Below, piece by piece: positions 2,968 to 5,681 of a stretch of 12,245 nucleotides of DNA. The translations under genes and the position numbers were made by a program. The stretch is from a virus, in the IMG/VR virus record IMGVR_UViG_3300031697_000053. The stretch is one strand, 5' to 3'. Positions within the stretch are counted from its first letter, which is position 1. Every line of letters begins with the position of its first letter. Below the pieces are notes generated by a model that saw only the letters and a list, made by a program, of their open reading frames with translations, had not been told where the DNA came from and ran no database searches.

Positions 2968-3537
2968 CTATTTTATACTTAGTAAATGTTGAAGATTATT
3001 TTCTTCCAACATTTGCATGAGATTGATCGGTTTAAAATCGTGTTGATCAACGCATACATTGAAATGATTGGTCCATTCCACTGGATTTGGGTTATGCCGA
3101 TGTCCATGTAAAATTAATTTTGAACCATGTTCCTTAACTCGTTTCGCGCATGCTTGAACACCTGGATGTGGGTATTTTGGATCCTCGATCGCGTAATAAT
3201 GATTGAACATTATTTGACCTCTTGTCATGTAATCACCGACAAATAAAAAACCAAGATTTTGATAATGAATGTTTCCACGCTTATCGTGGTTTCCTCTTAT
3301 GAGATATTTTTTCCCGTTGAGTCTATCAAATATATTTTTCCTTTGTTCAAAATTTCCTCGTTTATTGAAGAAAAAATCTCCTAGATGAATTACAACGTCG
3401 TCGTCGGATAAAACTATCTCATTCCATGTGTTTATCATTGATTCGTTCATTTCATGAGTGTTTTCAAATGGTCTATCCTGAAATTTTATGATGTTTTGAT
3501 GCCAGAAATGATGATCAGATGTTACGTAAACATTCAT
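2968..3537 (-). CDS. Calcineurin-like binuclear metallophosphoesterase (189 aa from the internal Met; the track ORF runs on to 3579)
   Basis: Signature motifs appear in the canonical order: VTSDHHFWH (D-x-H), HLGDFF (GD), IRGNHD (GNHD/E), LHGHRH (GH-x-H). The internal start MNVYVTSDHH at 3535-3537 overlaps the upstream ORF's TAA as TAATG, and MPP family proteins normally begin right at motif I. The longer 203-aa reading from 3579 is the alternative. Confidence 0.8.
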   Translation of the reverse strand: MNVYVTSDHHFWHQNIIKFQDRPFENTHEMNESMINTWNEIVLSDDDVVIHLGDFFFNKRGNFEQRKNIFDRLNGKKYLIRGNHDKRGNIHYQNLGFLFVGDYMTRGQIMFNHYYAIEDPKYPHPGVQACAKRVKEHGSKLILHGHRHNPNPVEWTNHFNVCVDQHDFKPINLMQMLEENNLQHLLSIK

Positions 3538-3719
3538 TAAACTCTTGTTATTTTGTCGAACGTGTGACACTTTGGACACATCACCAAAATCTTTTGTCCG
3601 TTTTCATTGTACGTGAGTGTTCCTGCACCATCAGTATTAACCGAGGTTCCAACCTTTACTCGTTGTGTAAAAGTTTGCATGCAATTATTACATTTTAAGT
3701 TAAGTGTGTAATTATTCAT
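3537..3719 (-). CDS. Small zinc-ribbon protein (60 aa; CxxC...CxxC)
   Basis: The ORF carries CNNC and CPKC pairs about 32 aa apart. Its stop overlaps the phosphoesterase ATG (TAATG). Same strand and tight packing with neighbours. Confidence 0.45.
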   Translation of the reverse strand: MNNYTLNLKCNNCMQTFTQRVKVGTSVNTDGAGTLTYNENGQKILVMCPKCHTFDKITRV

Positions 3720-4044
3720 TTTTCATTTTTATTTTTTCTGATAGAAACACATTATCTCTACTATGTTCCTTTGACCAAACATTTTCCGCTTCGCATTGAA
3801 TAATGTGTTTAGTTTTTAAGTTTTTGAATTTTCCAAGATACTTTACGCAATCTTCATAACTTTCAAGTATGTGAAATCCTGACATGTATTCTGTTCCTTT
3901 GCTTCCATCATGCACAGGTTTAACATCCGCGGTAAACCATTCATTTTCTGGAATTTTGCGTGATTTGTTGACACCATGAAAAAGCAAAAAATAATCATCT
4001 TCTACTTTTTCAACAATCTTATACCAGTATTTTTTATTGTCCAT
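3712..4044 (-). CDS. Hypothetical protein (110 aa)
   Basis: Six-frame ORF on the coding strand. Its last 8 nt overlap the start of the zinc-ribbon ORF. No recognisable motifs. Confidence 0.5.
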   Translation of the reverse strand: MDNKKYWYKIVEKVEDDYFLLFHGVNKSRKIPENEWFTADVKPVHDGSKGTEYMSGFHILESYEDCVKYLGKFKNLKTKHIIQCEAENVWSKEHSRDNVFLSEKIKMKNE

Positions 4045-4171
4045 GATATGTTGTATTTGCGAAAATTGATAATTTATCCCTTAAATTTTCCAAAGATTTA
4101 CTTTTCTGTTCTTTCCATTTTTTTTGTAAAACTTGATAAATTTCTTCACATAATTTATCACTACAATCCAT
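4034..4171 (-). CDS. Hypothetical mini-protein (45 aa, MDCSDKLCEEIYQVLQKKWKEQKSKSLENLRDKLSIFANTTYHGQ)
   Basis: Translated by hand from the minus strand, as it is below the track's length cutoff. It fills an otherwise empty gap, and its stop overlaps the downstream ATG by 11 nt. Confidence 0.25.
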   Translation of the reverse strand: MDCSDKLCEEIYQVLQKKWKEQKSKSLENLRDKLSIFANTTYHGQ

Positions 4172-4372
4172 TTTAACATTATTTATGAAAACTTCAGTTA
4201 CGGAGATACCCGGTTTATTTTCATGAACTTCTAGATAAAACCCTCAATTGTATTTTGTATTTTTTTTTCTACGTGCAATTGAAAAATTCCATGGTTCTTC
4301 TTTGGTATTTTTTTGACTGTGAGAGTTGGTCCCTTGATGTGATTCAAAAGTCCTGTTAAATTTTTTTCGTCT

Positions 4373-4636
4373 TTATTTTCTAAGGAGTTTTTCATATAGA
4401 TCTTTTATTTTTTGATCGTTGTCAAATTTCCAATCACCAAAGTAAAATTTTCCATCTTTTGGCATTTCCCATACGTTATAAACTTCGTTCATTTTAAATG
4501 GAAGTTGATTCATTCGATTTGAACTCATCATAGTTCTTTCTCTGCAACGAAATTTTCTGTTTGCTATTCTTTTACCAATTTTGTCGGAATCTCCTGCAAT
4601 TCCACTGATCGGTATTTTCTTTCTTGATCTGCTCAT
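4373..4636 (-). CDS. Hypothetical basic protein (87 aa)
   Basis: Six-frame ORF on the coding strand with no SD sequence. The N-terminus is K/R-rich (MSRSRKK..RKFRCRER). No recognised domain. Confidence 0.5.
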   Translation of the reverse strand: MSRSRKKIPISGIAGDSDKIGKRIANRKFRCRERTMMSSNRMNQLPFKMNEVYNVWEMPKDGKFYFGDWKFDNDQKIKDLYEKLLRK

Positions 4637-4681
4637 TTTTGCGATTATTTTAGTTATTGTAACTAGAACATCGCTGATTTT

Positions 4682-5026
4682 TTACTTGTTTTCATTTTCA
4701 ATTTTTTTGTAATCATTGGTTCCAAAAATTAACAAGTTAAAATCATCTTCCGATAATCCTTTGTTAAATTCTTGGGTTGAATTGATGACTGATAATTTAT
4801 CATCAATTAATTTTATTGTTAATGTTAAAGGATCCTGCCAGTCACCTCCACAACAAACGACCAACGTATCATCCGATACTTCCAACCATTCAAAGTTTTC
4901 AAAATCAACTGTTTCTCCATCAATTTCAGGCAAATTCTCAAATTCTAAGTAATACGGTAAACCATAAAAATTTTCATCCTCATCCTGGTACACTTGTTTT
5001 GCTATTTTTGCTAAATATTTTTTCAT
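4682..5026 (-). CDS. Highly acidic hypothetical protein (114 aa)
   Basis: The ORF is strongly D/E-rich (DEDENFYGLPYYLEFENLPEIDGETVDFENFEWLEVSDD...). It sits on the coding strand, 14 nt from the next gene. Confidence 0.55.
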   Translation of the reverse strand: MKKYLAKIAKQVYQDEDENFYGLPYYLEFENLPEIDGETVDFENFEWLEVSDDTLVVCCGGDWQDPLTLTIKLIDDKLSVINSTQEFNKGLSEDDFNLLIFGTNDYKKIENENK

Positions 5027-5040
5027 TTCCTGTAAACATA

Positions 5041-5226
5041 TTAATAAGTTTTAAGTACTGCTATAACTTCTTTCCATTGTTTACTACCTATATTCATTGC
5101 TTCATCAGTTTGTCCTTTATTTGCAAAATCTAAACAGAATTTAGCTAATTCAATAGCTGCTATCAAGTTATCTTTTTTGGATAATTTTCCATTATAAGGA
5201 TTGTGATCAGTTGAATCTAACATCAA
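5041..5226 (-). CDS. Hypothetical protein (61 aa)
   Basis: The ORF fills the gap between 5026 and 5256 on the coding strand. No recognisable motifs. Confidence 0.4.
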   Translation of the reverse strand: MMLDSTDHNPYNGKLSKKDNLIAAIELAKFCLDFANKGQTDEAMNIGSKQWKEVIAVLKTY

Positions 5227-5255
5227 TTTTGCTATTTTTGTTATTTCTTTTTCTA

Positions 5256-5681
5256 TTATTTTTTGATTATATCGTGTCCCATCTTAACAACTCCACTTAT
5301 AAGTATTGGTTCATGAACTTTAACCCAATTTTTGATGTTATTACTTTCGGCTCCACCCTTACCGGTTTTACGATCGAACGCAAGAGTAACATGTGGTATT
5401 TTATTTTTTGATTTGATACCGTTGGTTAAAAATTTTACTTTTGCAGCAATGGCATCATCGTTAAATCCGAATTCCTTAACTTCCATTTTTACTGTTTTCC
5501 CAACATACGTTAATTGCTCATTGCTTGGGATGCCAAAAACTAAAGTAACATGCTCACCACGGATCACCCAATCATCGTATTGGGTTTTATTTGCATAAAA
5601 CTCATCAAGTAAATCCAATAATTTTATTTGACTTACATCATCAAGTATTATTGCAATTAATGTATTGGATATTTTTTTCAT
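5256..5681 (-). CDS. 2H phosphoesterase family protein (LigT / 2',3'-cyclic phosphodiesterase / 2'-5' RNA ligase-like), 141 aa from the internal Met
   Basis: Two H-x-T-x motifs, GEHVTLVFG and IPHVTLAFD, lie about 55 aa apart, which defines the 2H fold. I chose the start MKKISNT at 5679-5681 because it forms a TAATG overlap with the upstream ORF's stop. The track ORF extends to 5753 if the upstream Met is used instead. Confidence 0.65.
   Translation of the reverse strand: MKKISNTLIAIILDDVSQIKLLDLLDEFYANKTQYDDWVIRGEHVTLVFGIPSNEQLTYVGKTVKMEVKEFGFNDDAIAAKVKFLTNGIKSKNKIPHVTLAFDRKTGKGGAESNNIKNWVKVHEPILISGVVKMGHDIIKK

Follow-up and report, generated by a model that had tools for sequence, protein, structure and literature searches.

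The subject of this work is a 12,245-nucleotide stretch of viral DNA (IMG/VR record IMGVR_UViG_3300031697_000053; hereafter, the window), and in particular two of its genes, which encode a binuclear metallophosphoesterase (MPE) and a small 2H phosphoesterase. We propose, with about even confidence for and against, that the two enzymes heal damaged tRNA ends: the 2H protein would open a terminal cyclic phosphate, the MPE would remove the resulting monoester, and a CCA-adding enzyme or a ligase encoded elsewhere would finish the repair. The window has a GC content of ∼31%, and nearly all of its genes lie on the minus strand. Its phage hallmarks are the numerous tRNAs, a T4 gp30.3-like gene, and genes for a LysM/CHAP endolysin and a NUMOD3 homing endonuclease. 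Among 50,697 phage records none is a close relative, the matches being to tRNA genes only. The same sequence was found again on many metagenome contigs of up to 28–31 kb. One of these, L007 (positions 1..22093), belongs to the same phage and contains the window, reversed, at 335..12579; all statements below about 22 kb refer to it.

The earlier note on this DNA placed both genes on the minus strand between positions 2968 and 5681, and both open reading frames (ORFs) proved to be real: the MPE stop codon ends at position 2968, and the 2H start codon has its A at position 5681 and overlaps the stop codon of an upstream 63-aa ORF in the sequence TAATG. The two HVTL motifs that the note had read in the 2H protein are also there, as H44-V-T46-L and H97-V-T99-L. 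Across 102 family members, residues T46, H97, and T99 never vary, and at least 90% of the members have H44; because of this conservation, the motif pair is not a chance occurrence. A word-indexed protein search yielded only two clusters, and an exhaustive HMMER search retrieved 639 relatives, most of them 120–150 aa long with two HxT motifs ∼50 residues apart. Neither the protein nor the family profile had a meaningful match among PDB sequences, and tblastn found no match in the 50,697 phage records. The Pfam family tRNA_lig_CPD scored 20.3–20.8 bits against the window protein, below the cutoff of 23, and matched 84 of the 102 family members (E ≤ 0.01, best 6.1e-11). LigT_PEase and 2_5_RNA_ligase2 did not match the window protein at E ≤ 0.1 and gave weak matches in one or two of the 102 relatives.

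The AlphaFold2 model built from the 102-sequence alignment had a pLDDT of 93.9 (an earlier model from two sequences only, with a pLDDT of 38, was discarded) and matched many 2H structures. Its closest structural neighbour was CNPase/Trl1-CPD, and not LigT, Acb1, or Usb1; Foldseek agreed with this placement, and the Trl1 KIN-CPD structure was matched as well. By its modelled fold, the 2H protein is a miniature member of the CNPase/Trl1-CPD branch, and the LigT type assigned to it in the earlier note has to be dropped, while the assignment to RNA-end healing is retained on the strength of fusions and neighbours. The CPD domain of Trl1, the fungal and plant tRNA ligase, and vertebrate CNPase are 2H 2',3'-cyclic phosphodiesterases yielding a 2'-phosphate. 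They are ∼210–250 aa long, whereas the window protein has 141 aa with its HxT motifs ∼50 residues apart; moreover, it is standalone, phage-encoded, without a linked ligase, and below the Pfam cutoff.

The fusions of the 2H family give a consistent picture. The 2H domain is fused to a CCA-adding enzyme, comprised of the PolyA_pol head, RNA-binding, and tRNA_NucTran2_2 domains, in P0127, P0128, P0164, P0179, P0232, P0244, L026, L033, L039, L042, and L043; to HAD_SAK_1 or HAD_PNKP phosphatases in P0153, P0182, P0195, and L043; and to AAA_33 P-loop kinases, in the kinase-CPD order typical of Trl1 and CNPase, in L017 and P0268. Seven further proteins of ∼1,000 aa carry the 2H domain behind N-terminal regions without a Pfam match. 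Of 31 IMG/VR loci centred on 2H genes, 19 have the gene of a CCA-adding enzyme on the same strand, either fused to 2H, next to it, or no more than a few kb away, and several of the remaining 12 loci are truncated contigs. As judged from these sequences, the family context points to healing of RNA 3'-ends, specifically of tRNA acceptor ends, before CCA re-addition. The earlier note had suggested cutting and ligation at the anticodon loop; the context of the 2H family favours repair at the 3'-end (CCA) instead. Since the family accompanies the CCA-adding enzyme, the pair probably cleans damaged tRNA ends; and since 2H domains are found fused to phosphatases, which shows, at the level of domain architecture, that the family repeatedly recruits a monoesterase, a phosphatase partner is to be expected for the 2H protein.

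The phage CCA-2H(-HAD_SAK) fusions thus share with our case the 2H family itself and the predicted logic of cyclic phosphodiesterase, phosphatase, and CCA addition. They differ in that the window 2H is a separate gene, that there is no CCA-adding enzyme in 22 kb, and that the candidate phosphatase is an MPE and not a HAD or HD enzyme. The window phage seems to carry separately several pieces that elsewhere are fused into one tRNA-repair polyprotein. A 142-aa protein encoded at L007 18828..19256, ∼6 kb beyond window position 1, and lacking Pfam or PHROGs matches, shares an uncharacterised and often duplicated domain with the N-terminal regions of the CCA-2H fusions P0164 (35.5 bits), P0232 (29 bits), and L033.

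For the MPE, the longest ORF, beginning with GTG, is 2968..3579. The likelier start, according to both metagenome gene callers and the sequence, is the ATG at 3537 (MNVYVTSDHHF...), which overlaps, again through TAATG, the stop codon of an upstream 60-aa zinc-ribbon ORF. The calcineurin motifs reported in the earlier note are indeed present: D8, H10, G53-D54, G82-N83-H84(-D85), H113, and (G145-)H146-x-H148 vary little or not at all among 56 homologues. Pfam Metallophos scored 32.4 bits (cutoff 21.5), and phrog_547 'phosphoesterase' gave a full-length profile match (E 3.8e-42, residues 6–195). Among PDB sequences the MPE matched 1XM7 (Aquifex aq_1665), with E of 9e-11 for the single sequence and 2e-29 for the family profile. 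By these similarities, the MPE is a calcineurin-like binuclear metallophosphoesterase of the AQ1665/phrog_547 family, alike to it in length and motif set and with no differing sequence features found. Membership in this family gives the MPE no function, because the family has no assigned substrate.

The remaining profile similarities of the MPE, to GpdQ, MJ0936, YfcE, and the 'Nuclease MPE' PdeM, were marginal. The best NCBIfam match, TIGR04123 (PdeM), scored 27.5 bits against a cutoff of 150, and none of the MPE neighbours in the phage contig is an Lhr helicase or a DNA ligase of the kind linked to PdeM. The note had likened the MPE to the phosphoesterase of Pnkp/Hen1 systems. This comparison failed: no Pnkp chain among PDB sequences, where the phosphoesterase structure of Clostridium thermocellum Pnkp is presumably included, was matched by the single MPE sequence (E ≤ 1) or by the family profile (E ≤ 0.01).

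The MPE family is present in 1,359 phage records, including Herelleviridae and rV5-like, PAK_P1-like, Vibrio, Campylobacter, and Streptomyces phages. RNA-repair genes or tRNAs stand beside the MPE gene in four of eight cultured phages sampled and in ∼30% of 80 IMG/VR loci. In particular, an RNA ligase gene is located within ∼2 kb of it in Listeria P100, where RtcB and 'tRNA amidotransferase' genes are also nearby, in E. coli ESCO5 (in the order MPE, RNA ligase, small ATPase), in Pseudomonas Ab02, and in Klebsiella KpS11, together with cRec in the latter. The cREC domain is predicted to process cyclic phosphates (Iyer et al., 2021, PMC7824862). In the 80 IMG/VR loci, locally built profiles found Rnl in six, RtcB and CCA genes in two each, and cRec in one, counts that come from few seeds and are uncalibrated lower bounds; MPEs of nine distinct lineages lie near Rnl, RtcB, CCA, or cRec genes.

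Genes for tRNAs lie within 1.5 kb of the MPE gene in 13 of the 80 loci (11 distinct lineages), on the same strand every time. They directly flank it in L076, L095, and L116, and the MPE-family gene is found inside tRNA arrays in these three loci and in L118. As an offset control, tRNAs were near the MPE in 10 of 71 cases (14%) and, when the reference point was shifted by 6 kb within these loci, in 4–5 of ∼60 (7–8%). No tRNA was present within 8–10 kb in 62 of the 80 loci, which are local windows and not whole genomes. In L065 (Ga0366841_1000039, 134 kb, T4-like), an MPE-family gene follows, after a 63-aa ORF, the gene of a PolyA_pol/CCA-like nucleotidyltransferase of 474 aa, the three together occupying 8387..10606 near genes for NAD-dependent DNA ligase, gp32, and UvsY; by the similarity of its nucleotidyltransferase, this may be a second kind of pairing between an MPE and a CCA enzyme. 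Taken together, the family evidence for an RNA-repair role of the MPE is suggestive, not decisive.

The two genes are linked in relatives of the window phage, a lineage of uncultured, low-GC, tRNA-rich phages in which they belong to a conserved block of co-oriented genes. The order of 365-aa gene, 63-aa gene, 2H, 83–87-aa gene, zinc ribbon (in some cases), MPE, and a gene similar to that of the major vault protein (MVP) is kept in L011, L062, and L063 at 50–80% identity. The intervening genes vary, while the order of 2H, 87-aa gene, and MPE stays. The window phage itself has extra genes: those at 5041..5226 and 4682..5026 separate 2H from the 87-aa gene, and those between 3712 and 4395 separate the 87-aa gene from the zinc-ribbon ORF.

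Several points weigh against a joint role in tRNA repair, starting with the uncalibrated nature of the neighbourhood counts given above. The linkage of 2H and MPE is confined to the lineage of the window phage and hence is not general: the window-type 2H gene is found in none of the 80 MPE-centred loci, and an MPE gene in only two of the 31 2H-centred ones. Common descent, without selection, could account for the synteny among relatives. About 70% of the 80 IMG/VR loci have no RNA-repair neighbour of the MPE, nor do Bacillus Bobb, Enterococcus EFDG1, Vibrio D378, and Streptomyces Moab. Close to the MPE, tRNAs are enriched only modestly, ∼2-fold with a mild gradient. Searches of the 22 kb with Pfam, PHROGs, NCBIfam, and local profiles found no gene for a kinase, ligase, CCA-adding enzyme, or Hen1 methyltransferase; the note's remark that the window has no recognisable kinase or ligase therefore holds, and extends to the 22 kb. 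Finally, the roles of both enzymes are predictions from sequence, and aq_1665, the only solved relative of the MPE, is itself uncharacterised.

Such points fit an explanation that we regard as doubtful while giving it appreciable weight, namely, that the two genes are functionally unrelated neighbours. The 2H protein would then act in tRNA 3'-end repair with a CCA enzyme, and the MPE would be a general accessory phosphoesterase, acting on nucleotides, DNA ends, or something else, that happens to share an early or accessory gene block. This would agree with the abundance of the MPE family among phage records in which no 2H match was found; with the surroundings of the MPE in Bobb (ribonucleotide reductase and DNA polymerase genes), EFDG1 (a Nudix enzyme and other phosphatases), and D378 (near dihydrofolate reductase); and with its distant similarities, which are to phosphodiesterases and a DNA nuclease. 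It agrees less well with the preservation of the order of 2H and MPE in four relatives while the genes between them vary, with the recurrence of the MPE family by RNA ligase, RtcB, cRec, and CCA genes and in tRNA arrays in many independent lineages, and with the repeated 2H-phosphatase fusions.

The tRNA genes of the window were another element of the earlier note, which counted 16 tRNA or tRNA-like genes beside the two enzymes, four of them with CAU anticodons and two for Phe. ARAGORN and Rfam agree on 14 genes: the four Met-CAU were recovered, Phe has three genes, Glu two, and Val, Arg, Ile, Lys, and Asn one each. The nearest of them, at 8990..9063, lies 3.3 kb from the 2H start, and the main array begins at 10273. 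The setting itself stands, as the 22 kb of L007 contain 34 tRNA genes, which form three same-strand clusters (156–3590, 16032–18353, and 21157–21676) bracketing the 2H/MPE module; the full complement of the phage is at least 34. The duplicated tRNAs in L007 are four Met-CAU, three Phe, two Glu, two Asn, two Gln, and four Leu, and one call has an undetermined anticodon. Inspection of the 3' flanks showed the 3'-CCA to be absent from all 14 tRNA genes of the window; CA, CT, or CG comes after the discriminator. Two window tRNAs are overlong, tRNA-Met of 89 nt (10915..11003) and tRNA-Asn of 88 nt (11999..12086); judging by their length, they may contain an intron or a long extra arm.

This arrangement invites the explanation that the enzymes routinely mature or turn over the tRNAs made by the phage itself and do not repair damage inflicted by defence systems. 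The module does lie between same-strand tRNA clusters, all 14 window tRNAs need 3' processing and CCA addition as none encodes its CCA, and MPE-family genes occur within tRNA arrays. Still, we consider this very unlikely. Canonical tRNA 3' maturation by RNase Z, RNase PH/T, and the CCA-adding enzyme gives 3'-OH ends and needs neither a cyclic phosphodiesterase nor a phosphatase. Moreover, tRNA genes occur within 10 kb in only four or five of the 31 2H-family loci; the other 26 or 27 (two ARAGORN runs differ by one) have none within 8–10 kb, again in local windows and not whole genomes.

Under the repair reading, the 2H protein would act on 2',3'-cyclic phosphates left on tRNA by metal-independent host RNases. 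By analogy with CNPase and Trl1, we infer that it would leave a 2'-phosphate and a free 3'-OH. The MPE would then take off this monoester, and the resulting 2',3'-diol end could be extended by a CCA-adding enzyme or sealed by an ATP-dependent RNA ligase, either being the host's or encoded elsewhere in the phage genome. CCA-adding enzymes of the E. coli type carry an HD phosphohydrolase domain with a counterpart role in tRNA 3'-end repair. The 2H protein and the MPE would together do the job of this HD domain, or of the HAD phosphatases fused to the 2H proteins of other phages. Of this scheme, the analysis establishes the enzyme classes, the fold, the catalytic residues, the fusions and neighbourhoods across the families, and the synteny within the lineage; tRNA ends as the substrate, the position of the phosphate in the product, the MPE as partner phosphatase, and the final step are predictions.

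The idea that tRNAs cleaved by host nucleases have their 2',3'-cyclic phosphate ends healed is shared with bacterial Pnkp/Hen1 and with Pnkp/Rnl1 of phage T4. The Pnkp of C. thermocellum uses a binuclear metallophosphoesterase for the cyclic-phosphate healing step. The window MPE differs from it in having no detectable similarity to the Pnkp phosphoesterase domain, and no linked kinase, ligase, or Hen1 was found in the 22 kb. Of the enzymes of T4-type repair by Pnkp with Rnl1 or Rnl2, neither a polynucleotide kinase nor an ATP-dependent RNA ligase was found in the 22 kb, the part of the genome covered by contigs that break at the tRNA arrays. The phosphatase of T4 Pnkp is a DxDxT (HAD) enzyme, not an MPE (PMC3592404).

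A different kind of function for one or both enzymes would be the degradation of defence signals. The 2H protein could resemble Acb1 or viral 2',5'-phosphodiesterases and the MPE a cyclic-nucleotide phosphodiesterase, the targets being messengers of CBASS, Pycsar, type III CRISPR, or Thoeris-type systems. We find this unlikely. Pfam Acb1 (PF23474) matched none of the 102 2H family members, the structural similarity of the 2H model to Acb1 anti-CBASS nucleases is clearly below that to CNPase, and the fusion partners are other ones.

The general principle of such healing was predicted earlier. Iyer et al. (2021, PMC7824862) predicted 2H, cRec, HAD, and, in few phages, calcineurin-like enzymes as RNA-end healers of jumbo phages, with CCA-adding enzymes restoring tRNA ends. 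The value of the present analysis would thus lie in the assignment of function to specific families and not in a new concept: what is new is the combination of a compact CNPase-like 2H protein with an AQ1665-type MPE and no linked kinase or ligase, while the kind of counter-defence was already expected.

Among the means by which phages counter defences that target tRNA, only T4 Pnkp/Rnl1 is well studied. If our reading is true, a mostly phage-borne family of mini-2H proteins, the 639 relatives of which are essentially unannotated and fall below the Pfam threshold, would partner the CCA-adding enzymes of phages by opening cyclic phosphates for them. It would also provide a testable substrate for a very common unassigned 'phosphoesterase' of large virulent phages (>1,350 records), the carriers of which include Listeria P100, Staphylococcus K-like, rV5-like, and PAK_P1-like therapeutic phages. 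Acceptor-end damage would then be a major battleground of phage and host besides anticodon-loop cleavage. The features of the window are listed in Table 1.

Table 1. Location and properties of the 2H and MPE genes, surrounding genes, and other features of the window.
Feature	Position	Strand	Properties
Intrinsic-terminator-like hairpin	435..462	-	12-bp stem and T run, 3' of the MVP-like gene
MVP-like gene	487..2901	-	804 aa, directly downstream of MPE; MVP_shoulder 2.9e-23, Vault_3 8e-12, Band_7 (SPFH)
MPE	2968..3537	-	189 aa; binuclear metallophosphoesterase, AQ1665-like (phrog_547); predicted phosphomonoesterase partner
Zinc-ribbon protein	3537..3719	-	60 aa; CxxC...CxxC; weak NCBIfam zinc-ribbon matches
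Basic protein	4373..4636	-	87 aa; between 2H and MPE in every lineage relative
2H phosphoesterase	5256..5681	-	141 aa (MKKISN...); compact, CNPase/Trl1-CPD-like; predicted RNA 2',3'-cyclic phosphodiesterase
63-aa protein	5681..5872	-	Orthologues in L063 (55% identity) and L062 (30% identity)
365-aa protein	6004..7101	-	Globular N-terminal part, C-terminal coiled coil; lineage-specific, always upstream of 2H
DUF7768/DUF4406 protein	7832..8164	-	110 aa; PHROG 'nucleoside 2-deoxyribosyltransferase'-like; first gene of the block (window, L011)
tRNA genes	8990..12086	-	14 genes: one at 8990..9063, 13 in 10273..12086; ARAGORN and Rfam agree

The small proteins of the block have few recognisable relatives. 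The 87-aa protein is 52–59% identical (BLASTP) to the products of the 83–85-aa genes of L011, L062, and L063 and has no family match in Pfam, PHROGs, or NCBIfam. The L063 orthologue of the zinc ribbon (63% identity) is encoded ∼60 bp upstream of the MPE gene. The homologues of the 365-aa protein form eight clusters only, 51–100% identical and all without Pfam domains, and are syntenic in L011, L062, and L063; the protein itself matched nothing in Pfam, PHROGs, NCBIfam, or PADLOC. The earlier note had offered it as a candidate kinase or ligase. We rejected this, as there is nothing kinase- or ligase-like in it: it has no family match, no P-loop or KxDG motif was seen on reading, and its homologues are restricted to the lineage. 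A phage-borne defence system as an explanation of the region was also rejected, the PADLOC matches being insignificant. Just upstream of the 365-aa gene, L062 (236..649) and L063 (754..1155) carry a gene for the cyclic-phosphate-processing receiver cREC_REC; the window has at this position an unrelated ORF of 87–89 aa (7139..7408).

The MVP-like protein is matched by eukaryotic MVP chains in the PDB at E 2e-15, and after the shoulder it reads like a long coiled coil, as the cap helix of MVP does. A Vault/MVP_shoulder gene is located 3' of the MPE gene in L063 and L064; in L011 and L062 the contig ends within the gene at this place, which carries no Pfam annotation. Among the 50,697 phage records, MVP-like matches were found only in the huge phages LR756500, LR756501, and LR756503 (462–735 kb), over the full length at 50–52% identity, and in none of the three is there synteny with MPE or 2H. 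We considered LR756500 and LR756501 as complete-genome proxies for the window phage and rejected them, as they show no such synteny and have no tRNAs within 20 kb.

The MVP-like gene and the block as a whole allow a broader version of the repair reading, which strikes us as very unlikely. Here, the cRec gene of the relatives and the 365-aa, 2H, 87-aa, MPE, and MVP-like genes would form a dedicated module for maintenance of tRNA 3'-ends, with the MVP homologue as a vault-like shell or scaffold for work on RNA, which would parallel the RNA-containing vault particle of eukaryotes. The 2H protein and the MPE would strip blocks from acceptor ends, so that a CCA-adding enzyme could restore them; candidate blocks would be 2',3'-cyclic phosphates from RNase toxins or 3'-pyrophosphates from CapRel/toxSAS-type defences.

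The MVP-like gene is probably the last of its transcription unit. The hairpin at 435..462 is the sole minus-strand terminator-like site between ∼9300 and 400, which is compatible, as far as sequence signals go, with one long transcript ending there; terminator-like sites in total were not above the shuffled expectation, and this evidence is weak. Beyond the MVP-like gene, on its 3' side, L007 12666..15532 encodes a GNAT acetyltransferase, a DUF4842 protein, and a protein with a TonB_C domain. The GNAT protein weakly resembles the GNAT domain of an ART-GNAT-CCA-2H-HAD polyvalent protein in L043, and we take the DUF4842 and TonB_C proteins to point to a Bacteroidota-type host.

The only plus-strand genes of the window are in the endolysin region, 9245..10263, between the lone tRNA-Met and the main tRNA array. 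They are the endolysin gene (LysM and CHAP-like, starting at 9538 or 9562 and ending at 10263) and a preceding, overlapping 123-aa ORF (9245..9616), the product of which looks hydrophobic and may be a holin. All contigs, from assemblies of many samples, end at tRNA arrays ∼2.3–2.9 kb past the endolysin gene. On the minus strand, the ORFs 4231..4395 (54 aa) and 4034..4171 (45 aa) have as their counterpart one gene of 120 aa in the sibling contigs L002 (7865..8227), L003, L005, and L009 of this phage; comparison of these sequences indicates a probable indel or frameshift polymorphism within the population at 4034..4395.

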